Shown one piece after another: positions 1 to 61,578 of a stretch of 64,000 nt of DNA. Positions within the stretch are counted from its first letter, which is position 1. Each line of letters starts with the position of its first letter. The translations under genes were made by a program, and so were the position numbers. The DNA lies in contig CAYPFP010000001.1 of NCBI GenBank assembly GCA_964409935.1, positions 30,331 to 94,330 of the forward strand, read 5' to 3'. The notes under the pieces were generated by a model that saw only the letters and a list, made by a program, of their open reading frames with translations, was not told the DNA's origin and ran no database searches. This DNA comes from an uncultured Planctomycetota bacterium (GTDB taxonomy: Bacteria; Planctomycetota; Brocadiia; JAADGH01; CAYPFP01).

Positions 1-321
1 AGGTAAGCGAACATCGAGACTTCCGCCTCGCGGCGGTTAAGCTTGTACTTCTCGACGAAGAACTCCACGATAGCCTGCACCGTGCGCTTGCCGTTGCACT
101 GGTCCCAGACAGCCGTGCCGATCTTGTCGAGGGCCACCTTTTTCTCGTCGGGCATGTTCAGGATCGTCGCCAGGAAGTTGGCCCACCAAGATCTTCTACG
201 AGGGATGGTAATGACGACATTACCCTCATCGTCGCGGCGAACCTTGAGGTTCTTGTTCCGGACGGGCCGCGCCGCCATGGACTGCTCGCGACTAAGGGTC
301 TGCTTTTTTCGACCGAACATC
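1..321 (-). CDS. PqqD-family protein (RiPP recognition element-like), 3' end beyond window edge
   Basis: Reverse-strand translation from ATG at 321 (alt ATG 278) gives ...MAARPVRNKNLKVRRDDEGNVVITIPRRRSWWANFLATILNMPDEKKVALDKIGTAVWDQCNGKRTVQAIVEFFVEKYKLNRREAEVSMFAYL with no stop before position 1; the LDKIGTAVWDQCNGKRTVQAIVEFF...EAEVS..YL pattern matches the PqqD/RRE fold signature. The track ORF 43..681 (+) is its antisense. Confidence 0.55.
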
Positions 322-355
322 GGCACCGTCCGCCACCTGTCCTTGCCCGAACGCA

Positions 356-1255
356 CTAATGACAATACACCAGGTCCACATTGTTTTCAAGCGCATTCTT
401 CATGCTCGCCGGACCGACAACACGGAAAACGAAGATCTTGTCCGACGTTTCGCAATACCAGAGGCGGCAATGAAGGAACCAAGGACGCAGAATCAGCCGG
501 AAGACGCGAAGACGAAGTTTGTAGCGCCCCGTGTAGACAAGAGCCGAATGACCGCGAAAAGTGTCCTTGGTTCGTTCCACGACAAAATCCCGGAAAAGCT
601 TCGGCAAGGCCTCGTCCATCCACATTTCGAGCGTACGGTCTTTCAGAACCATGTGGGCCAGGGCCGCGCGCGCCACCATGATCTGGGAGCCTCTATGGGC
701 GAAGTCAAAACGAAGGCGGCCGGTTTTCAACTCGAAGGTGGAAAGACGGTAGCCCTCCGGCACGTCGAAACAAAGACCGTAGAGATTCCAGCGGCTCTTG
801 CCGTCGGCAGGATGGTCGCGGAGCGACTGAAAGATGCGGGCCGCGGTCTCGTGCAGCGGCCCGCGATCATCACCCGCAAATACGCGCAGGATCATGACGC
901 GCCCGCATTCCCCACAGCGCGAGACCAGACCCGCCGCCTCGATGTGGTTCTTGTAGGAGAAGAACTCGTATTCCTCAAAAGGCAGACCGGCCAGAGGCAA
1001 ACGCCGCTCCACGCGAAGCTCCTCCCTCGACTTGCGCGCCTCCCTGGTGACGAGCTTAATATGCTTGTCCACCGTGCCGGCCAGCAGGACGCGCCGGCGC
1101 GGACGCTCCCAGCGGATTTCGAGTCGCGGACCGCGCACATCATCGAGGCGCACGTAGCCCTTGTGGTAAGAACCCTCGATGTGCGTAGGGTCCCAGTCGG
1201 CGGGGACCTGACACCTGACATCATGAAGACCAAACTCAGTCCATTCCGTTTTCAT
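356..1255 (-). CDS. hypothetical protein (about 300 aa)
   Basis: ORF 356..1348 (-), probable start MKTEWTEF at 1255; balanced amino-acid composition versus the R/A/L-rich overlapping plus-strand ORF; contains a CGECG motif; sits directly upstream of the PqqD-like gene on the same strand. Confidence 0.45.
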   Translation of the reverse strand: MKTEWTEFGLHDVRCQVPADWDPTHIEGSYHKGYVRLDDVRGPRLEIRWERPRRRVLLAGTVDKHIKLVTREARKSREELRVERRLPLAGLPFEEYEFFSYKNHIEAAGLVSRCGECGRVMILRVFAGDDRGPLHETAARIFQSLRDHPADGKSRWNLYGLCFDVPEGYRLSTFELKTGRLRFDFAHRGSQIMVARAALAHMVLKDRTLEMWMDEALPKLFRDFVVERTKDTFRGHSALVYTGRYKLRLRVFRLILRPWFLHCRLWYCETSDKIFVFRVVGPASMKNALENNVDLVYCH

Positions 1256-1290
1256 GGAAGCGCCAGCCCGAAGCCCCAAGAGAAACGACG

Positions 1291-3090
1291 CTACGCCCGC
1301 GGGAGACCCGCCCGGAAATTCCCGACCGCTTCCGAGACACGCAGGCAACGGTTGTAGATGCGAAGCGACTTAACCGCGGGAGCAATGCGCAGCGCCGCGT
1401 CGCCGTTGGGGCCGCGGAAATGCGGGTTCAGACGCCCCCAACCGAACTGGCGGAACTCACCGCCGTCGCACAGGCGGCCATCCACCACGAACAAAATAAC
1501 CTTCGGCCCGCCGTCCACCATGACGGCGACATGGTGCGGCTTGCCGGCTTCAAGGAGGCCGGGGTCGCAGTCCCAGCAGTTCTCGGTGCGGCCGTCGTTG
1601 AGGACAAGGGCCACGGTCTTGCGACTGGTCGTCTGCAGGCAGAAGCCGCGGCCGTTTTCGGTGCGGTTATCGAGGAGAATCTGCCCCGCGACGAGGGAGT
1701 CGAGCTGGAGGCGCAAGTCGAGCGCAAAGCCCGCGCGCAGGTCTTTCGTACCGTAGTCCGGGCGCGCTCCGTCCCGCGCGCAGAAGTCCGACAGTTTGGG
1801 CATCGGCGCGGCGGCCGGCATGGATTGGCCGGACGGAGGGAGCGTCAACACAGCGCCGGCGGCCAGGCCGGCGTTCTCGAACTGGTTCCAGAGACCTTCA
1901 AGAAGGACCGGATCAAGCTCGTGGACACGCGCGAGATTCTTCTGCGTCTCGGTGATGAAATAGCGGCCCCCGTCCTCGATCAAATCAGGGTAGCTCATGC
2001 GGATGAACGGGTCGTCATCGTAGAGGACGATCTCGGGTTGGGACCAGCGGATGATTTTTCCGGCCGGGGAATCGGCCTCGATGCCGCCGCACAGCCAGGC
2101 GGGATTCCGATCGTTGTAGGGAAAGCCGGCGTCCCTCGCCTCGCGGACGAAACGGCCGCCGTGATTGTGGAACCAGTACAGGTACTTGCCGTTGGAACAC
2201 CTCCAGACAAAGTTCGCGGCGCGGGGATGTTTCATCAGACGGCCGTCCGCGTAACGCTTGTACTGCGGGACGTCCCAGGTGCGGCCGGCGTCGCGGCTGT
2301 AGGAGAAGGCAGGATGACCGTCAACGGTGCGGTAGACGCAGTAGAAGGAACCGCAACTCAGCACGGCGAAGCTCTGCTCCTCGGCGACAGGCCCGCCGCC
2401 GGGAGGGGTGCGCAGACCGGCGTCGCCGTCGGGGAGGGTCTCCCACGTGATCTTCTGCGGGTCGCGTTCGGCGAGGATGTTCGCGCTCTTCAGAAGGACA
2501 CCCTCCGAACGCGTGAAAAATCCGTGGCCGAAACCGCCCACCTTGTGAAGCGGCACGAATGCGATGCCCCCGTGAACGAACGGCTTGCCGACGTTCCAGA
2601 AAAACTTGACCTTTCCCCCGTAGACGTTCTCGCGGTCAATGGCCATCTCGCGGATGGGGATTTCCGTACGGCGCATTGACCAGGAACGACCGCCGTCGTC
2701 GCTGTACTTGAAGACGAAATGACCCAGCGAATCCACACGCCTGCACTTGCCGCCTTTGAAGGGCGGGTCGTCGGCGGCCACTTCGCGCATGTTGTCGGTG
2801 TTGTGGTTGTAGAAGCAGTAGATGCGCCCGCCGGGGACCTTCAGGAGGACGGCGTACGACGCTTCAGGACCATCGGCAGGCTCGACGTCCACGGGGTCCG
2901 TCCACGTCTTGCCCCGGTCGGGGCTGCTGACCGCCACAACGTGCTGGCCGCTGGCGCCTTCGACGCCCTTGCCGGTGGTCAGTACGCAAGTCCATGTCCC
3001 GTCGTCGTTAACGACGACATAAGGTTGGTCGCTGTAGTGTTCGCAGGGGATGCGGTGACCGTGAACGATGTTGCGAGGGTCGGGAGTCAT
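1291..3090 (-). CDS. BNR/Asp-box repeat sialidase-like beta-propeller protein with C-terminal LamG/concanavalin-like domain
   Basis: Three Asp-box motifs (SPDRGKTWTD, SDDGGRSWS, SRDAGRTWD); C-terminal region CDPGLLEAGKPHHVAVMVDGG...LFVVDGRL is typical of LamG lectin folds; no N-terminal signal peptide. Confidence 0.7.
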   Translation of the reverse strand: MTPDPRNIVHGHRIPCEHYSDQPYVVVNDDGTWTCVLTTGKGVEGASGQHVVAVSSPDRGKTWTDPVDVEPADGPEASYAVLLKVPGGRIYCFYNHNTDNMREVAADDPPFKGGKCRRVDSLGHFVFKYSDDGGRSWSMRRTEIPIREMAIDRENVYGGKVKFFWNVGKPFVHGGIAFVPLHKVGGFGHGFFTRSEGVLLKSANILAERDPQKITWETLPDGDAGLRTPPGGGPVAEEQSFAVLSCGSFYCVYRTVDGHPAFSYSRDAGRTWDVPQYKRYADGRLMKHPRAANFVWRCSNGKYLYWFHNHGGRFVREARDAGFPYNDRNPAWLCGGIEADSPAGKIIRWSQPEIVLYDDDPFIRMSYPDLIEDGGRYFITETQKNLARVHELDPVLLEGLWNQFENAGLAAGAVLTLPPSGQSMPAAAPMPKLSDFCARDGARPDYGTKDLRAGFALDLRLQLDSLVAGQILLDNRTENGRGFCLQTTSRKTVALVLNDGRTENCWDCDPGLLEAGKPHHVAVMVDGGPKVILFVVDGRLCDGGEFRQFGWGRLNPHFRGPNGDAALRIAPAVKSLRIYNRCLRVSEAVGNFRAGLPRA

Positions 3091-3123
3091 GTAAGTTCTC
3101 CTGGCGGTCGAGAGGCGGGGCGG

Positions 3124-4155
3124 TCAACCTTTCGGCGGGAGGTCCACGCGGGTCAAGGCGCCGATGTCGGAGGCGAAGAATGCGGAGACATTCCGGACGC
3201 AGGCGCGGGCCATGCGTTCGTTCGCCTGGCAGGTGTTCGAGCCGATGTGGGGCGTGAGCACCACGTTCTTGAGACGGCGCAAATCCTTATCGGGCGAGAC
3301 GGGAGTGTAGGGTTCGTTCTCGAATACGTCGAGAGCGGCGGCGGCGAGACGGCCGCCGGCGAGGGCATCGAAGAGGGCGGCTTCGTCGAGCACCATGCCG
3401 CGTGCCGTGTTCACGAGCAGGGCGCGGGGTTTCATGAGGGCCAGGCGGCGCGCGTCCACGAAACGTTTCGTCTCGGGGTTCGCGGGCAGGTGAATGCTGA
3501 GGACGTCGGCCTGCTTGAAGACGGAGTCCACGTTGCTGGTGTATTCCGCGATACCGGCGGAGGCCCTGAATTGGGCCGTGTCGGCGGCGAGCGTCGAGAG
3601 GGGACGCCGGCCGCAGGCGATGACGTTCATGCCGATGCCGAAATGGGCCGCGGCGGCCACGCGGCGGCCGATGCCGCCGAAGCCCAGCAGACCCAACGTC
3701 TTGCCATGAAGTTCCACGCCGGTCTGGGAGGGGAATTCGCCGAGGCGGAAACGCGCCTCCATCGCGCTGACATTTCGCGCCAGGCAGCCCATCAGCCAGA
3801 TGGCGTGTTCGGCCACGCTGATGTCGAGCGCGCCGGGCGTGTTGGTGACGATGATGTTCTTGCGGCGCGCGAGGGCCTTGTCCACGCCGTCGTGTCCGAC
3901 GCCGAAGCGGGCGATGAGCGCCCCGCGCGCGCCCTGAGCGTTCGGCAGACCGCCCGTCTTTTCCAGGGCCTCGTAAAGCGGGCCGGAGTACCGCTCGACG
4001 CCGACGACGACGGCGCGGCAGTTCTGCGCGAGGACGGCCTGAGCCAGCGACGCCTCGTCGGCCGGGGCCGGGGTGAAGCGGAGGCCGGAAGCGGACTTGA
4101 AGACGTCTTCGCCCTTGCCGAATTCCTTCTGCGTTACGAGGACCGGCTCAGCCAT
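3124..4155 (-). CDS. D-isomer-specific 2-hydroxyacid dehydrogenase family protein (NAD-binding)
   Basis: GLLGFGGIGRRVA Rossmann motif and conserved ...LPANPETKRFV..., ...VNTARG..., ...LTPHIGS... blocks of the PGDH/GhrA family; 8-nt overlap with the upstream aldolase gene. Confidence 0.85.
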   Translation of the reverse strand: MAEPVLVTQKEFGKGEDVFKSASGLRFTPAPADEASLAQAVLAQNCRAVVVGVERYSGPLYEALEKTGGLPNAQGARGALIARFGVGHDGVDKALARRKNIIVTNTPGALDISVAEHAIWLMGCLARNVSAMEARFRLGEFPSQTGVELHGKTLGLLGFGGIGRRVAAAAHFGIGMNVIACGRRPLSTLAADTAQFRASAGIAEYTSNVDSVFKQADVLSIHLPANPETKRFVDARRLALMKPRALLVNTARGMVLDEAALFDALAGGRLAAAALDVFENEPYTPVSPDKDLRRLKNVVLTPHIGSNTCQANERMARACVRNVSAFFASDIGALTRVDLPPKG

Positions 4156-4912
4156 TTCGTTTCACCTTTTCAAGGATTCTGCGGCACCCGTGGAGGACGA
4201 ATTCGGTGTCGAGGCCGCAAGCGATAAAGCGGTAGCCCTGGTCAATGCGGCGCTTCACGTCGTCGGGGTCCATGGAGACCACATGGAGGCCCGGGGGCAC
4301 GTTGTGACGTTTGCAGGCATCGAGGATTTTCTGGAGGGCGTCGGTCATGGCGGGATGGGTCAATTCGCCGGCGCGGCCCAGAGAGGCCGACAGGTCGTAC
4401 GGGCCGATGAAGACGGCGTCAATGCCGGGCACGGAGAGGATCGAGTCGGCGTTTTCCACCGCCTTGTAGTGCTCCATCATGACGGCGACGACGACGGAGT
4501 CGTTATGGGCATTGAAATAGGGTTTGAAGTTGCGGCCAAAGTCGGCGGCCCGACAGAACGAGGAACCGCGGAAACCGACGGGCGGGAACTTGGACATGGC
4601 GACGGCCATTTGCGCCTCCTCGCGGGAGTTCACGAAGGGGACAATGATGCCGTTGCCGCCGTTGTCGAGGACGTGTTTGGCCAGGACGGGGTCGCACGAG
4701 TGCAAGCGCGCCAGCAGGTCCACGCCCGTGCCCTTGAGGGCCAGGGCGATCTCGTGGAAGGCTCGCACGTTCGTGGAGGTGTGCTCCATGTCCACGGCGA
4801 TCCAGTCGAAGCCCTCGCCGGCCATGAGTTCGGCGACGGTGGGGTGTCCGATCATCATCCAACCGCCCAGAGCGGGTTCGCCCTTGCGGAGTTTCTCCTT
4901 GGTTCTTCCCAT
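4148..4912 (-). CDS. HpcH/HpaI family 2-keto-3-deoxy-acid aldolase
   Basis: 254 aa with GWMMIGHPTVAELMAGEGFDWIAVDMEH... and ...VFIGPYDLSASLG... blocks typical of HpaI/GarL-type class II aldolases. Confidence 0.85.
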   Translation of the reverse strand: MGRTKEKLRKGEPALGGWMMIGHPTVAELMAGEGFDWIAVDMEHTSTNVRAFHEIALALKGTGVDLLARLHSCDPVLAKHVLDNGGNGIIVPFVNSREEAQMAVAMSKFPPVGFRGSSFCRAADFGRNFKPYFNAHNDSVVVAVMMEHYKAVENADSILSVPGIDAVFIGPYDLSASLGRAGELTHPAMTDALQKILDACKRHNVPPGLHVVSMDPDDVKRRIDQGYRFIACGLDTEFVLHGCRRILEKVKRNG

Positions 4913-5127: not shown

Positions 5128-6165
5128 ATGATTCGATGGGGTGTGATTGGAGCTTGCGGAATCGCAGACCGCCGGACCATTCCCGAGGGCTTCATGCCTG
5201 CCGAGAACGCCGAACTGGTCGCCGTCATGGACGTGGACGCCGAACGTCTCGAAGCCGTGGCGAAGAAGTACAACGTTCGCTCGTACGTCAGCTCGTCGGA
5301 TCTGTGCGCGGACCCGGACGTGGACGCCGTGTACATCGCCATCCCCAGCCATCAGCACTGCAAGGAGACGGTGAAGGCGGCGGAGGCCGGCAAGCACGTG
5401 CTGTGCGAGAAGCCGATGGCGATGACGCTGAGCGAGGCCGAGCAGATGATTGACGCCTGCCGCCGCGCCAAGGTGAAGCTGGGGCTGGGCTACATGATGC
5501 GTTTTCATCCGCTTCACGTGAAGCTTAAGGAGATGGTGAAGGCAGGCCAACTGGGCAAGCTGGTGATGGGCCGCGCGCAACTGACCTGCTGGTATCCGCC
5601 CATCAAGGGGGCATGGCGGCAGGACCCGGCCATGGGCGGCGGCGGTTCGTTCATTGACATGGGCACGCACTGCATTGACGTGCTCGAGATGTTCATGGGC
5701 AAGGTGGCCCGGGTGCAGGCCTTCACGAACCGTCTCGTCCAGGGGTATCCCGTGGAGGATACGGCGCTGGTGTCGGTGGCGTTCCGCTCGGGCGGGGTGG
5801 GCGTGGTGGACAATCACTTCAACGTGCCGGACGAAGCGGTTCTGAATGTTCTCGAACTCTACGGTTCGAAGGGCAGCGCGCTGGCGGAGGGGACCATTGG
5901 GCAGATGTCCATGGGCAAGATGATCGCGCGCGTGCAGGCCGAGGCGAAGGGCTACGCGGCCGCCCAGCAGCGCGCGGCGGTGCAGCCCGTCGAGGTCTTC
6001 GGCGAACCGCGGAATATATATCAGGCCGAGGTCGAGGAGTTCTCGCGCGCCATCGAGGAGGATAAGACCCCGCCCATATCGGGCGAAGAGGGGCTTTGGA
6101 ACCTTCGCATCGCCCTGGCCGCCTACAAGTCCGCGCGGACCGGTCAGGTCGTGGAACTGGACTAG
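5128..6165 (+). CDS. Gfo/Idh/MocA family oxidoreductase
   Basis: N-terminal IRWGVIGACGIA Rossmann motif, EKPMAMTLSEAEQM block, 345 aa; ATG verified at 5128. Confidence 0.9.
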   Translation: MIRWGVIGACGIADRRTIPEGFMPAENAELVAVMDVDAERLEAVAKKYNVRSYVSSSDLCADPDVDAVYIAIPSHQHCKETVKAAEAGKHVLCEKPMAMTLSEAEQMIDACRRAKVKLGLGYMMRFHPLHVKLKEMVKAGQLGKLVMGRAQLTCWYPPIKGAWRQDPAMGGGGSFIDMGTHCIDVLEMFMGKVARVQAFTNRLVQGYPVEDTALVSVAFRSGGVGVVDNHFNVPDEAVLNVLELYGSKGSALAEGTIGQMSMGKMIARVQAEAKGYAAAQQRAAVQPVEVFGEPRNIYQAEVEEFSRAIEEDKTPPISGEEGLWNLRIALAAYKSARTGQVVELD

Positions 6166-13711: not shown

Positions 13712-16700
13712 TCACTCCAGTTGAATCTGATACGCGAATTCGTTTTCCTGCACGCCGAATTTCAGGGATGCGCCGGCGGCATCGAACTTCACGTCGCGCA
13801 AAACGGCGCCGTCCATGGCGACGGCGCGAACGGACCGGACCTGCGCGGGCTTGCCGAGGAGCTTCTCCAGGTTGAGCGTGACGGTAAAGGCGCTGCTGTC
13901 GGGAAGCGGAGTGACGGTCACGGTCTTCCCCTTGATTTCCAGACGGAATGCGCCTTCGGTGACGGCAGGGCCGAAGTCAATGGGCTTCTTCGCGACGTTC
14001 ATGCGGGGCGGCGGCTCGGGCGCGGGTTCGTGCTTCACAAGACGGACGCCCTTGACCTTGCCGGCCTCGCGCTCGACGACGAGCGTGCCGATCCGGTAGC
14101 GGGTGGAGCCGTCCTCGTCGCCCAGAAGCGGATATCGCTTGCCGGACTTGGGGTCGTAGAGGCCCGCCGTGATGTCGTATTCGGCGCCGGTGAAGTCCTC
14201 CGGGATGGTCTCGGGACGCCATTCGGCGCCGGTGGCGATTCGCCCGCTCCAGGCGGTGGTGGGCGGCGTGGGCGCGCCGCCTGTCGTGAGGGCGAGTTTG
14301 TTGCGCTTGCCGATTTTTGGATCGTCGAAATGGAGGAAACAGGTGAGGTCCATCGGGGCGGGCCGCTCGACGTCCCAATTGACGTAGAGCTTGAACTTGC
14401 GGTCACCGAGGTACTCGACGCGGTCGGCGGAGGGCCGGATGCGCAGGCGGGGGTCGGGTTCAAAGCTGCGGGCGTTCACGTAGAAGCGCGACGGCCCTCG
14501 CGATTGCTCGACGATGACGCCGTTGATTCTCTCGATGGAGGACTCGATGTCGGCGATCTTCGCAAGATAGCCGTAAGTCGGTAGAAGCCGCCCCTCGACG
14601 TTCCAGTCCTTTTCGCCGCGATTGACGAACACCTTCGCGCCGGATTTCCACGCGACGATCTGGCGATGGATATCGCCGTCGGCGAACTCGACGTTCTCGA
14701 TGGTGTCGAGGGCGATGCGGCGGATGAAGTCCTGAGCAAGCCAGTACTTGCGCACGGCGCCGCGGCCGAAGGCGCCGCGGTCAATCATAAGCGCGTGGCC
14801 TTCGAGTATCTCCGAAGAGATGTAGTCGTCGCTCTCGATGCCGTGATCGCGCCGGGTGCGGCCGCCCTGATAGCGGTCGGAATAGCCGACGCCGTGCAGG
14901 CTGAACCGATGGTGGTTGACGGCGTCGAACCACGGCACGCGCTCCCAGTCCTTGCAGGCGAGCGTGTTCCCAAAACGCGAAGGGGAGGGGGTCAGGAGCA
15001 TGTGCTGGCAGTCGGCGCCGTCGAGGTAACCGATAAGCTGGTCGTGGCCGGCCTCGGAGGTCGTGGGGGCGTTGCCGCCGAGGGCGTCGCGGATATAGGC
15101 GAAGGACTCGCCCCACGCCTTGCGCGTCTCAAGCGAGGAGTGGAAATTGCCCTGGCGGTCATAAAAGTCGAAGCATCCCGCCGACGTGAAGACGTCGAGG
15201 AAGTAGTGGGTGGGCCGCAAGGCCGGCTTGATCAGCGCGATGTTGCGCCTCACAAAAGGCATGATGCGGTCGGGACGCCAGCGGTAACTCTGAGCGTCGC
15301 GAGATTCATTGAGCCACGCCTTGATGGGGCGGCCGTCCTCGGTGAAACAGATATGCTCGTAGGTGTAGTCGTCGGCGTCGGGATAGAAATCAATGTAATT
15401 GTCATGAAGCCCCCAGGGGATGTCGCGCTCCGCGCAGACCCTCGCGATTTCCTGCATGTCTTCAATGGAGCCATACTTCGGGTTGGGAGGGAAAATGTCG
15501 GGCAGGCGGTAGTCGTAACCCCAACGCTGCCAGACATGTACGCTGAGCAGCGAGTCCGTGAGACCGTAGGCGATCATGCGCCGCATCGTGTCGGCAATCT
15601 CGGCGTACTTGCCGCCCCAGATGTCGAACACGAAGCGGCCGGCCTTGCGTTTCAGACCGCCGGCGGGCTTCTTGTCGTAGAGCGGGCGGTACTTGACGGC
15701 GCAGTCAAAGGCGCCCTGGACGCCGGGCACGAAGGTGAGCGTCGCGTCCATGTGCGTGTGAAGGGCGTAGAGTCTCTGGTCGGGATCAACGAGGAGGTAG
15801 TCGGGCGGAGTGTCGCTGGCGGTGAGCAGCGAGACGCCTTGCTCGAAATCGAAACCAACGTGGCTCGTCGAGAGATTGTGGCCGCCGAAACCGGCCCTGA
15901 ACAACTTAGGCTCCACGATGCAGTAACCGTGCCCGTAGTAGACGCGCGGAGCCTGCTGGTCGGCGGGACCGAGAGCGATATCGGTCATGCGTTTGGGCGA
16001 GGCCAACTTGACGCGCAGACCGGCCTTGTCCTTCCAGAGATCGGCGACCAGGGAGAACGCCTCATTCTCAAGCAGGGCATGATGCGTGATGCGCACACGC
16101 CCGAAAAGGTCCTTCTTCGCCTCCACTTTCCGGATCATGACCTGGGAAGGCCACGCACCAAACTTGTTCCTCAACACGGAGATCTTCAGACCGTCAAAGA
16201 CGACGCACCGAGTCCCCTGCCCGAAGGCAAGGGCCGCGTCGGCCAGGCCGTTAGTGCCGAGCACGCATGCGGCGACCGCGCCGCCGTCGAGCTTGAAAAC
16301 GAACTCATCGGGCGCGGCGGCCGAGCCGGATTCAACCGCCTTGCGCGCGCGGTCGCGGAGTTGCTGCCGGTCGGCGTCGGTCAACTGCGCGGGCGGATCG
16401 CCGGCGACGACGGCCGGCTCGCCCCAGAAACAGGAATCGCACGTGGTGTCGCGTTTGGGGCCAGGGTGCGACTCGAGTCGCAGAAGAATCTCCTTCCCCG
16501 CGAACTTCGTGAGGTCGGCCTCGCCGTCCACCCAGACTTTGCTGTCGGTGTGGCGCTCAAAGAGCTTCTCCTCGCCCGCCCAGACGCGGAACGTCACGCC
16601 GTCGCTCGGCGGCTCCTTCGCGGTCTGATCGCGAATGGCGTTGGAGAAGACCAGCTTGATGGGTTTGGTCTCCGGAAGCTTGAGGAGGTATTCGGCGAAA

Positions 16701-17377
16701 ATGGACCCCCCGCCGGGTTTCCAGGGCGGATGCATCATAAGGGACGCCTTCATCGTGCCGCGCGAGGTAGTGCTGCGCGAGAAGTGCGCCGAAGATTGGG
16801 CGTCGGCCCCTTCCCAACCGACAGGCATGTAAACGAGCGGTTTATCGTAGTAACACCAAGCCACGCGCTGCGTGCGCAGGGGGTCCAGAGAGAGGGCGCC
16901 GCGAGCGGGAACGACGTTTGCGGCCAGGGTTTGCGGTCCGGGGGCCGCCTGCGCCGCCCTGGCAAAGTCGGACTTGAAGATTTGAACCGCATGCACGGCG
17001 AGAGGCCCGTCTGCCAGCTCAGCCTTTGCGTACACGTGGACCGGATAAAGTGCGGACAACGCGCCTTTGTCGGCTGCGACCTGGAACTCAACCCGCGCCT
17101 CCTTGCCCGGCGCAAGCTCAACCGTTCGTTCCGTATGACCCACAGCGCGCCATTCGTCCACCAGGCCGCCGATACGGAGATGCGCGGCAAAGGACTTCTC
17201 GCCGGAATTCTTGACCGTTACCGCGACGGTCTGCGGCTTCGCGTATTCGGCGACGTCCTCAATCGGCGCAATGGAAATCGTGAGCGGGCCTTGCACGGCC
17301 ACATGTCCGTCAAAAGCCACGGCATGAGCCGCCGCCCAAAGACACAAGAACACAGATGCGGCCTGAAGAATTCTCAT
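13712..17377 (-). CDS. large secreted protein (1221 aa) with putative TIM-barrel glycoside-hydrolase-like central domain
   Basis: Signal peptide MRILQAASVFLCLWAAAHA; central RWGYDYRLPDIFPPNPKYGSIEDMQEIARVCAERDIPWGLHDNYIDFYPD resembles a (beta/alpha)8 glycosidase core; the family was not recognised with certainty. Confidence 0.6.
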   Translation of the reverse strand: MRILQAASVFLCLWAAAHAVAFDGHVAVQGPLTISIAPIEDVAEYAKPQTVAVTVKNSGEKSFAAHLRIGGLVDEWRAVGHTERTVELAPGKEARVEFQVAADKGALSALYPVHVYAKAELADGPLAVHAVQIFKSDFARAAQAAPGPQTLAANVVPARGALSLDPLRTQRVAWCYYDKPLVYMPVGWEGADAQSSAHFSRSTTSRGTMKASLMMHPPWKPGGGSIFAEYLLKLPETKPIKLVFSNAIRDQTAKEPPSDGVTFRVWAGEEKLFERHTDSKVWVDGEADLTKFAGKEILLRLESHPGPKRDTTCDSCFWGEPAVVAGDPPAQLTDADRQQLRDRARKAVESGSAAAPDEFVFKLDGGAVAACVLGTNGLADAALAFGQGTRCVVFDGLKISVLRNKFGAWPSQVMIRKVEAKKDLFGRVRITHHALLENEAFSLVADLWKDKAGLRVKLASPKRMTDIALGPADQQAPRVYYGHGYCIVEPKLFRAGFGGHNLSTSHVGFDFEQGVSLLTASDTPPDYLLVDPDQRLYALHTHMDATLTFVPGVQGAFDCAVKYRPLYDKKPAGGLKRKAGRFVFDIWGGKYAEIADTMRRMIAYGLTDSLLSVHVWQRWGYDYRLPDIFPPNPKYGSIEDMQEIARVCAERDIPWGLHDNYIDFYPDADDYTYEHICFTEDGRPIKAWLNESRDAQSYRWRPDRIMPFVRRNIALIKPALRPTHYFLDVFTSAGCFDFYDRQGNFHSSLETRKAWGESFAYIRDALGGNAPTTSEAGHDQLIGYLDGADCQHMLLTPSPSRFGNTLACKDWERVPWFDAVNHHRFSLHGVGYSDRYQGGRTRRDHGIESDDYISSEILEGHALMIDRGAFGRGAVRKYWLAQDFIRRIALDTIENVEFADGDIHRQIVAWKSGAKVFVNRGEKDWNVEGRLLPTYGYLAKIADIESSIERINGVIVEQSRGPSRFYVNARSFEPDPRLRIRPSADRVEYLGDRKFKLYVNWDVERPAPMDLTCFLHFDDPKIGKRNKLALTTGGAPTPPTTAWSGRIATGAEWRPETIPEDFTGAEYDITAGLYDPKSGKRYPLLGDEDGSTRYRIGTLVVEREAGKVKGVRLVKHEPAPEPPPRMNVAKKPIDFGPAVTEGAFRLEIKGKTVTVTPLPDSSAFTVTLNLEKLLGKPAQVRSVRAVAMDGAVLRDVKFDAAGASLKFGVQENEFAYQIQLE

Positions 17378-52898: not shown

Positions 52899-53192
52899 TT
52901 ACTTCTTTTCCGCCGGCTTCTTTTCTTCCGGCTTTGCGGGGGCCGCAGGAGCCGCCGGAGCCGCAGGGGCCGCCGGGGCCGGAGTCGCCGCGGGGGCCGC
53001 CGGGGCCGGAGTCGCCGCGGGGGCCGCCGGGGCCGGAGTCGCCGCGGGGGCCGCCGGGGGCGCCTCAGGCTTGGCTTCCTTCTTCTCAGCCGCCGGCTTC
53101 TTCGGTTCCTTGGCCGGCTTCACTTCCTCACCGCATCCGACGATAAACCCTACGCCAACCGCCAACGTTAGCGCCAGCAACCACTTGTGCAT
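52899..53192 (-). CDS. Pro/Ala-rich tandem-repeat lipoprotein (97 aa)
   Basis: [23 protein letters not shown] lipobox; three-plus copies of the 9-aa repeat TPAPAAPAA encoded by a 27-bp tandem repeat; strong aaaggagg RBS. Confidence 0.6.
52960..53060. repeat. 27-bp tandem repeat (about 3.5 copies) inside the lipoprotein gene
   Basis: The unit ggccggagtcgccgcgggggccgccgg recurs at 52977, 53004, 53031 (period 27). Confidence 0.7.
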
Positions 53193-60450: not shown

Positions 60451-60488
60451 CTTGGCTGCCCCTGTGCCTCAGGATTCGAGTAGCAGGA

Positions 60489-60540
60489 CCCGAAACCCGA
60501 AACCCGAAACCAGAAACCCTAAACCCGAAACCCGAAACCT
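60489..60540. repeat. array of 7-bp tandem repeats (CGAAACC x7 with variants)
   Basis: CGAAACC CGAAACC CGAAACC AGAAACC CTAAACC CGAAACC CGAAACC; begins 3 nt after the pseudopilin stop. Confidence 0.8.
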
Positions 60541-60543
60541 CCG

Positions 60544-61578
60544 TCACAAATCCCCCCTCCGGGGTCCCAGCGCCTTGATGTAGGAGGGGATGAAGATGAC
60601 CTGGCGGAAGACTATGCCGACCTCGTCCACGCGGAAGTCGGCCTGCTTCAGGCCGTCGCCGGGGTAGTCGTCGGTTCGACCGGGAGCGAGGAACTGGGCT
60701 CTGGGCCGGGGTTCGTCGCGTCCGTCGGTGATTTCCGTGGAGTAAAAGTCCGTCCATTCGTATTCGTTGGGGTCGGCGATGCGCAGGGTGACCTGGACGG
60801 CGGCGGGGATGCGGGCGCGAGCGGCCTGGTCGCTGTCGAAGGCCCAGGACGTGTTGGCTCCGGCGCCGGAACGATTCACCAGGTTGTAGGCCATGCCTCG
60901 CGTCGGCGGCCAGAAGTCGAACCAGTGCGTTTCTCTCTCGCCGCTCAGCCAGACTCGCTGGTCGGAGTTCTGATTGAAGCCGTCCACCTGGTAGTACCGC
61001 AACTGGAATTCGCGCACGTTGAAGCCCAGGGCGCTGAAGTCAAAGCGGGGCGAGGGGTTCGCGGGGGTGGGGTCGTGGACGAGGACGGCGGCAAGGTCGG
61101 CCGCCGTGGTCGGCCCGGTGAGGAGTCGGCGCGAGACGCCTTTTTCCAGGACGTGGCGGCCGGTGACGCAGTAGACGACCTCGACGGGGGTGCCGAAGTT
61201 GGAGGATTCGGTGGTGGTGCGGAACCAGAGCATGTCGGGGTAGCAGTAGGGGACGCTGGTCCTGCTGGTGTCGCACAGGATGTTGAAGAACGGGACGCGC
61301 GGCACCCAGGTGCTGGAGTAGGTGTAGGCGCGGTTCCAGCCGATGAAGACGTTGCCGCTCTCGTCCACGACGGCGCCTTGCAGGTCGCGCTGCATGGTGT
61401 CAACGATGGCGCGGACCGTCTGGTAGATGGCGATGCGGGCGTCGGCGCTCGAGAGCATGTTTCCGGCGCTGCTGAAGATGGTGTAGAGCATGATGGTGAT
61501 GATGGTCATGAGGCCGGCGGCGACGGTGAGTTCGACGAGGGTGAACGCCGCGGCGGCCTTTGATTTGAGTTTCTTCAT
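60544..61578 (-). CDS. prepilin-type N-terminal cleavage/methylation domain protein (GspJ-like minor pseudopilin, 344 aa)
   Basis: KAAAAFTLVELTVAAGLMTIITIML N-terminus (FTLxE core, Ala at -1). Confidence 0.75.
   Translation of the reverse strand: MKKLKSKAAAAFTLVELTVAAGLMTIITIMLYTIFSSAGNMLSSADARIAIYQTVRAIVDTMQRDLQGAVVDESGNVFIGWNRAYTYSSTWVPRVPFFNILCDTSRTSVPYCYPDMLWFRTTTESSNFGTPVEVVYCVTGRHVLEKGVSRRLLTGPTTAADLAAVLVHDPTPANPSPRFDFSALGFNVREFQLRYYQVDGFNQNSDQRVWLSGERETHWFDFWPPTRGMAYNLVNRSGAGANTSWAFDSDQAARARIPAAVQVTLRIADPNEYEWTDFYSTEITDGRDEPRPRAQFLAPGRTDDYPGDGLKQADFRVDEVGIVFRQVIFIPSYIKALGPRRGDL

Follow-up and report, generated by a model that had tools for sequence, protein, structure and literature searches.

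Stand-alone proteins of the PqqD family, such as PqqD of pyrroloquinoline quinone (PQQ) synthesis and the B1 chaperones of lasso peptides, are small, discrete recognition elements (RREs) for peptides that are made by ribosomes and modified after translation (RiPPs). The authors of RRE-Finder also reported discrete lasso-type RRE matches without lasso machinery, which may belong to unknown RiPP classes or be DNA-binding relatives (PMC7470986). PsbP/Mog1 domains are treated as protein- or ligand-binding adaptors (PMC4275035, PMC3482391). The type VII ATP-binding cassette (ABC) systems (MacB, LolCDE, FtsEX, YtrEF and DarCD) combine an FtsX-type four-helix permease with a LolD/MacB/FtsE-like ATPase. 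We analyzed a 64,000-nucleotide (nt) stretch from an uncultured Planctomycetota bacterium (GCA_964409935.1, contig CAYPFP010000001.1, positions 30,331 to 94,330), called the window below, whose left edge carries a PqqD-like gene and the gene of a 299-residue protein that we named X. A sequence-only reading had proposed that a radical S-adenosylmethionine (SAM) or other RiPP maturation cluster begins just outside this edge. Our analysis points instead, with moderate confidence, to the first two genes of a minimal ABC operon of the MacB/FtsEX type with two cytoplasmic accessory proteins. The features at the edge are the following.

1255..356, minus strand: gene of protein X, 299 amino acids (aa) plus stop, first gene of a conserved four-gene cassette
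321..355, minus strand: 35-nt spacer from the stop codon of X to the start codon of the PqqD-like gene
320..1, minus strand: PqqD-like gene, codons 1-106 of ~135, recognised by its translation, its PF05402 match and its homologues
43..681, plus strand: antisense open reading frame (ORF) across parts of the X and PqqD-like genes, an artefact

The stop-free translation of 320..1 on the minus strand gives 106 aa, starts with MFGRKKQTLSREQS and includes LDKIGTAVWDQCNGKRTVQAIVEFFVEKYKLNRREAEVSMFAY. Even in this truncated form it matched the PF05402 PqqD profile with an E value of 4.8e-07 and 30.5 bits (gathering cut-off 23.4), which confirms the family assignment made from the letters alone. The earlier statement that this gene runs off position 1 also held, and about 29 C-terminal residues would lie beyond the window, since the full-length homologues have 130-138 aa. 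The X gene runs from an ATG at 1255 to a TAG at 358-356, and its start matches that of its homologues. Both genes lie on the minus strand, 35 nt apart, as had been described, and a precursor peptide gene would not fit in this spacer. The plus-strand ORF 43..681 had been taken for antisense, and rightly so. When the window was compared with its homologous locus L001, most substitutions fell at codon position 3, both in X (68/51/149 at codon positions 1/2/3, or 149 of 268 at position 3) and in the PqqD-like gene (28/11/45, or 45 of 84), indicating that the minus-strand frames are under purifying selection; the ORFs 43..681 and 359..1357 (plus strand), which stand in sequence of 64% G+C, are therefore antisense artefacts. 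Protein homologues likewise backed the minus-strand frames only, not 43..681. Between the minus-strand genes of positions 1-3400 we found no separating sigma-70-like promoter or intrinsic terminator, with one weak exception, a promoter-like match inside the end of X, in a count at chance level.

What lies beyond the edge was approached through homologous loci. Seven of them (L001, L002, L003, L008, L012, L015 and L029; X 29-68% identical) were long enough to show the gene after the PqqD-like one. In three lineages the order was the same: X, the PqqD-like gene, an FtsX-like permease gene and, on contigs that reach further, a LolD/MacB-type ATPase gene. The close clade (L001, L002, L003, L008 and L012, all metagenome contigs) has X 64-68% identical to that of the window, PqqD-like proteins of 134-135 aa and a permease of 235 aa. 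L015 (P0012), where X is only 29% identical, holds all four genes, and L029 (P0015; X 37% identical) holds the first three, its contig stopping within the permease. The spacer between the X and PqqD-like genes is 23-24 nt in L001, L002 and L008. The stop of the PqqD-like gene directly adjoins or overlaps the start of the permease gene (5558/5559 in L001, 2920/2923 in L002, 3405/3406 in L008), also in the distant loci (3917/3914 in L015, 1956/1953 in L029). Because this holds at every locus, it suggests that the two genes are translationally coupled. The genes flanking the cassette were unrelated from locus to locus, as follows.

Window: BNR-sialidase/LamG
L001 and L012: F5/8-type-C protein
L002: deaminase
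L008: divergent TatD-radical-SAM fusion
L015: CDP-alcohol phosphatidyltransferase upstream; DUF6807 and acyl-CoA dehydrogenase downstream

Since the genes outside differ in every lineage, the unit under selection is the four-gene cassette. L015 was the only locus extending past the ATPase, and DUF6807 and acyl-CoA dehydrogenase genes come next there. No radical-SAM gene or precursor ORF was conserved in the homologous loci, and no precursor gene with an adjacent maturase (radical SAM/SPASM, YcaO, lasso B2/C) was found in these loci or in the 64-kb window. Conserved small ORFs were also absent from the cassette spacers of the homologous loci, including L029; the candidate hidden precursor ORFs in these spacers were only translations of repeats, were not conserved, and were rejected. 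The remaining window contained no radical-SAM or FtsX relatives of the genes of the homologous loci. An adjacent radical-SAM/RiPP cluster is thus not supported, the cassette being conserved without maturase or precursor genes, a verdict that rests on synteny.

Some further observations were made on the cassette. L008 carries at 518-1921 (minus strand), divergent and 150 nt upstream of X, a gene for a 467-aa fusion of a TatD-type hydrolase (250 bits) and a radical-SAM domain (64.5 bits), which has no counterpart in the other loci or in the window. The ~95-nt spacer between the permease and ATPase genes (6267-6364 in L001, 3631-3724 in L002, 4114-4200 in L008) forms a long imperfect hairpin of 7-nt-like repeats, with a minimum free energy of -45.6 kcal/mol (z -6.5) in L001 and -37.8 (z -4.9) in L002; these two spacers differ in sequence and retain the stem, and the hairpin was not significant in the distant cassette of L015 (z -0.4). 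It may be an intercistronic stabiliser or attenuator. The 415-nt spacer between the X and PqqD-like genes of L029 holds at 1330-1520 ~26 copies of a GTGAACC-like tandem heptanucleotide, and in the window the heptamer ACCCGAA is repeated 7.4 times at 60488-60539, intergenic and just before the gene ending at 60544; the hairpins are made of a heptamer-type unit similar to that of these intergenic repeats. A role of the cassette as an anti-phage defence system was considered and rejected, PADLOC returning only generic ABC and FtsX-domain matches.

The permease and ATPase of the homologous loci matched PF02687 FtsX (64.7 bits) and PF00005 (116.6 bits), respectively. The permease is nearest to the C-terminal four-helix bundles of the Streptococcus pneumoniae MacB-like permease (Spr0695-type), MacB, YtrF, LolF/E/C and FtsX, and the ATPase is closest to LolD (238 bits), DarD (216 bits), YbbA, DevA, MacB and FtsE, with 193 bits to a bacteriocin-export ABC family and all scores below equivalog cut-offs. 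The homologous loci thus encode, in genes outside the window, the four-helix FtsX-type permease and MacB/LolD/FtsE-clade ATPase by which type VII systems are recognised, placed on separate genes as in LolCDE and FtsEX. Several traits set the cassette apart. The permease has only 219-235 aa compared with 296-654 aa in the matched solved or curated members, and its four hydrophobic segments leave a loop between the first and second transmembrane segments (TM1-TM2) of ~45 residues in L001 and ~33 in L015, so that the large TM1-TM2 periplasmic domain of type VII permeases was not found in either. In characterised type VII members the periplasmic domains have ~100-250 residues, against an outer loop of ~33-45 here. 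Unlike those systems, the cassette has no adaptor (membrane-fusion protein) gene, and the genes of two accessory proteins of the cytoplasm, X and the PqqD-like protein, come before the permease.

The PqqD-like protein of the window shows 70-75% identity with its counterparts of 134-135 aa in L001, L002, L008 and L012, and 42% with the one in L015. Full-length homologues (130-138 aa) scored 39.2 and 45.2 bits with PF05402, and like the stand-alone RRE chaperones this is a small discrete protein with a match above threshold to that profile. Its closest solved relatives were lasso-peptide B1 chaperones (9x90_B, E 0.0017; TbiB1, 5v1u, E 0.12), the similarity spanning the helical core, and these two matches are what suggests a winged helix-turn-helix (wHTH) fold with a peptide-binding groove. 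None of the curated NCBIfam PqqD subfamilies (PqqD of PQQ biosynthesis, TIGR03859; lasso B1, NF033536; ScmD, TIGR04248; GeoRSP PqqD, TIGR04302) was matched above its cut-off, with 24-36 bits against cut-offs of 46-100 (24-30 versus 46 for PQQ_PqqD and 24-34 versus 80 for lasso_PqqD_Bac). The protein differs from the stand-alone RRE chaperones in three ways: in none of the loci examined does a gene for a precursor, a radical-SAM enzyme or a protease or cyclase of the lasso type stand beside it; its gene is coupled to an FtsX-like permease gene; and its PqqD core, from residue ~54, is preceded by a basic N-terminal extension (residues 1-55) with a conserved RPxRN...IPRRKxWW motif and followed by a basic C-terminal tail. 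With lysine- and arginine-rich tails at both ends, its isoelectric point (pI) is ~10.2. No hydrophobic segments were found in this protein or in X.

Protein X, for which no recognisable family had been seen, indeed matched neither Pfam nor NCBIfam. When 1.84 billion representative proteins were searched with a profile, 1,621 relatives reached E<=1e-3 and 235 reached E<=1e-30; almost all of them have ~300 aa. None of 150 diverse members gave a credible Pfam match at E<=0.01, the only one being a spurious SOK match; the family profile had no match at E<=10 among the sequences of the Protein Data Bank (PDB), and no plasmid-borne relatives were found. An AlphaFold2 model from a 28-sequence alignment (mean predicted local distance difference test score, pLDDT, 89.7; predicted template modelling score, pTM, 0.84), for which an earlier model from 7 close sequences (pLDDT 60.5) was set aside, predicts a duplicated PsbP/Mog1 fold, that is, two tandem domains of alpha-beta-alpha sandwich type, which is the fold of adaptors or chaperones and not of enzymes. 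The N- and C-terminal halves of X align in a profile-profile comparison (hhalign probability 96%, E 4.3e-9), with C114/C268, C117/S271, D147/C298 and H148/H299 opposite each other, so the protein is internally duplicated. The residues in question are encoded as follows.

916-902, minus strand: CGECG (C114-G-E-C117-G, residues 114-118), a CxxC knuckle after the strand 106-113 in domain 1 of X
817-812, minus strand: D147/H148, presumed partners of CGECG
454-452, minus strand: C268, part of the pseudo-symmetric motif of domain 2
364-359, minus strand: C298-H299 at the C-terminus, part of the same motif

The CGECG motif noticed in the sequence-only reading is a real conserved feature, and the modelled fold that holds it is of the adaptor/chaperone and not of a catalytic type. 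Among the 150 diverse members, C114 was conserved in 94%, C117 in 82%, H148 in 89%, C268 in 90%, C298 in 88% and H299 in 85%, and W156 was invariant. We infer one or two metal sites, by which the last helix of each domain would be anchored, at its end, to a beta-hairpin. Within the superfamily of PsbP, Mog1, DUF1795 (Eag, SciW), TplEi, DcrB and LpqN, TplEi matched X end to end (325-338 alignment columns), and the two-domain arrangement of both proteins fits, as the match covers the whole of X. X stands apart from this superfamily in having no sequence-level membership (Pfam PsbP, Mog1 and DUF1795 models; PDB sequences) and in being cytoplasmic. We know of no other PsbP/Mog1-fold family with the conserved CxxC...DH and WHC...CH-COOH motifs of X.

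By pairwise identity, the sampled members of the X family fall into three groups, the first of which (group A) includes the window protein and has the cassette with PqqD-like, FtsX and ABC genes. Group B was sampled with five members (P0162, P0167, P0038, P0171 and P0174; X 21-29% identical), at the positions given below.

L016/L017: 6822-10704
L018: 6675-10744
L021/L022: 6803-10758
L026: 2820-4899
L027: 1268-3359

In all five, X directly follows a gene of the shape, elongation, division and sporulation (SEDS) family (RodA/FtsW; PF01098, 312 bits), often with mreB divergent upstream, and this position ties the X family to envelope machines. At the three loci that extend far enough, the gene after X encodes a protein of ~550-600 aa that has a hydrophobic segment at its N-terminus, tetratricopeptide repeats and a conserved HEYGH (HExxH-type) motif (at the other two the next gene is cut by the contig end); this exported protein is possibly a periplasmic metallopeptidase. 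One group B member is annotated as candidate division WS1, and another locus of this group has planctomycete-type neighbours. Group C is found in Thermoproteota archaea, where X lies between rpL6 and convergent genes for a RimI-like acetyltransferase and the TATA-binding protein (322 aa; L013 883-1851 and L014 9992-10960, also L024 and L025) and retains the PRLEIRWE motif and the C-terminal CH motif. The archaeal copies beside rpL6 had raised the idea of a TSR4/TYPP-like ribosome-biogenesis chaperone; this was rejected, the TYPP fold being a different, all-beta duplication that is reported to be absent from archaea (PMC4275035). Bacterial X is recurrently found beside genes of polytopic envelope machines, and its core function must be more general.

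In the model that we favour, the PqqD-like protein would be a stand-alone RRE-type winged-helix subunit with basic tails, translationally coupled to the permease. Like other RREs, it would capture an extended segment of a peptide or protein by strand addition. X would act as a cytoplasmic adaptor or chaperone with a duplicated PsbP/Mog1 fold, probably metal-stabilised through its cysteine and histidine motifs, and the two proteins, possibly in a physical complex with the ABC module, would keep a client or partner bound by such a segment at the cytoplasmic face. The ABC module, by hydrolysing ATP, may then act on the held segment, or the held segment may regulate this hydrolysis; the ATPase would drive or gate an activity at the membrane. 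Given the RodA-linked paralogues of X, the ABC module would most likely be envelope-related. We propose more tentatively a wider picture, in which the X family consists of metal-binding duplicated PsbP/Mog1 folds docking onto polytopic envelope machines (the SEDS proteins RodA/FtsW in one branch, a minimal FtsX-type ABC in the branch of the window) and an RRE has been recruited as an ABC subunit; this family would be large, unmodelled, cytoplasmic and spread over bacteria and Thermoproteota archaea. Literature searches pairing PqqD with FtsX or MacB transporters, or RodA with Mog1 or PsbP, returned nothing relevant. Each domain is of a known type, and the literature and libraries searched describe no cassette in which, without RiPP genes, an RRE-type protein occurs together with a duplicated PsbP/Mog1 protein and an FtsX/ABC pair that is almost without a loop.

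Several points weigh against the envelope-related ABC operon. Because the window ends within the PqqD-like gene, the FtsX-like and ABC genes of the source genome are deduced from homologues. The near-absent periplasmic domain leaves a type VII permease no obvious route of mechanotransmission. The pI of ~10.2 of the PqqD-like protein would also suit nucleic-acid binding. A peptide-export role would find its precedent in the darobactin system, where a MacB-type ABC exports a RiPP and whose DarD was matched by the ATPase with 216 bits. Finally, no PqqD-like, FtsX/ABC or SEDS neighbours of archaeal X were found, so X is not specific to the bacterial cell wall.

The export precedent leads to one alternative, in which the cassette is dedicated to the export of, or immunity to, a ribosomal peptide, and the genes for its precursor and maturase are located in another part of the genome. 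The RRE-like protein would recognise the leader and pass the peptide to a MacB-type exporter, and X would serve as a chaperone like the Eag proteins. PqqD/RRE proteins bind leader peptides in every characterised case (PMC7470986), lasso-peptide B1 chaperones are the nearest solved relatives of the PqqD-like protein, and the ATPase resembles the darobactin exporter and, with 193 bits, a bacteriocin-export family. These ATPase matches are, however, generic across the LolD/MacB/FtsE clade and all below equivalog cut-offs, the cassette lacks a gene for a membrane-fusion or outer-membrane partner, conserved precursor-like ORFs and maturases are missing around the homologous loci, and the linkage of X relatives is to RodA, not to peptide clusters; we consider this explanation unlikely. 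The cluster proposed in the sequence-only reading, with a maturase (radical-SAM or other) just left of the window, the PqqD-like protein as its RRE and X as an uncharacterised maturase, can call on the PF05402 match, on a weak resemblance to the ScmD, GeoRSP and lasso subfamilies of PqqD, and on the TatD-radical-SAM fusion of L008, whose gene lies on the other strand, 150 nt upstream of X. That gene is missing from the other loci and from the window, the scores stay far below all NCBIfam PqqD subfamily cut-offs, and the adaptor fold predicted for X has no known catalytic members. What follows the PqqD-like gene at every long-enough locus is instead the FtsX-like permease, then the ABC ATPase where the contig continues, and in L015 DUF6807 and acyl-CoA dehydrogenase genes after it, all of which makes such a cluster very improbable.

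The basic character of the PqqD-like protein also raises the question of whether it is a small winged-helix DNA-binding regulator of its own operon, a false positive of the kind discussed for RRE-Finder, whose authors proposed that discrete lasso-type matches without lasso machinery might be DNA-binding relatives (PMC7470986). DNA-binding wHTH domains share structural homology with RRE domains, and the protein is strongly basic (pI ~10.2). The basic residues are, however, in the N- and C-terminal tails, the core being about neutral by residue count; the protein scores above the PF05402 gathering threshold and matches no DNA-binding helix-turn-helix family even at E<=1; and the abutting or overlapping of its stop with the permease start at every locus is typical of stoichiometric subunits more than of regulators. 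We regard such a regulator as doubtful, somewhat more so than the export module. The minimal ABC operon with two accessory proteins is the explanation that we retain.

To the right of X, within the first 6 kb of the window, lies what looks like a set of genes for enzymes of sugar-acid catabolism, and this set is not conserved beside X at other loci.

1291-3090, minus strand: BNR/sialidase-like protein with a C-terminal LamG domain
3124-4155, minus strand: D-2-hydroxyacid dehydrogenase
4148-4912, minus strand: HpcH/HpaI aldolase
5128-6165, plus strand: GFO/IDH/MocA oxidoreductase

No tRNA gene was found in the window. Four long ORFs had no Pfam match at E<=1e-5; some of them overlap long ORFs of the opposite strand, so that their coding strand is putative.

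13712-17377, minus strand: 1221 aa
24250-27828, minus strand: 1192 aa
27972-32411, plus strand: 1479 aa
53374-60006, minus strand: 2210 aa

Just downstream of the 2210-aa ORF, at 52936-53064, lies a G+C-rich tandem repeat of 4.6 copies of the 27-nt unit GCGGGGGCCGCCGGGGCCGGAGTCGCC, with a 9-nt sub-period.

For this planctomycete, a natural-product cluster at the window edge is probably absent. PqqD-like RRE domains serve as beacons for RiPP clusters in genome mining, and the cassette described here would be a systematic false positive of that approach. It is maybe a new job for the RRE fold: if our reading is true, an RRE/PqqD protein would here serve an ABC system as one of its subunits instead of acting in RiPP biosynthesis, and this fold would be so used for the first time. 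The X family, with at least 1,600 sequence clusters and neither a Pfam nor an NCBIfam model, would provide a candidate accessory factor of the envelope machinery in poorly studied phyla, since in other bacteria X is found directly after the peptidoglycan polymerase gene rodA/ftsW and near mreB.

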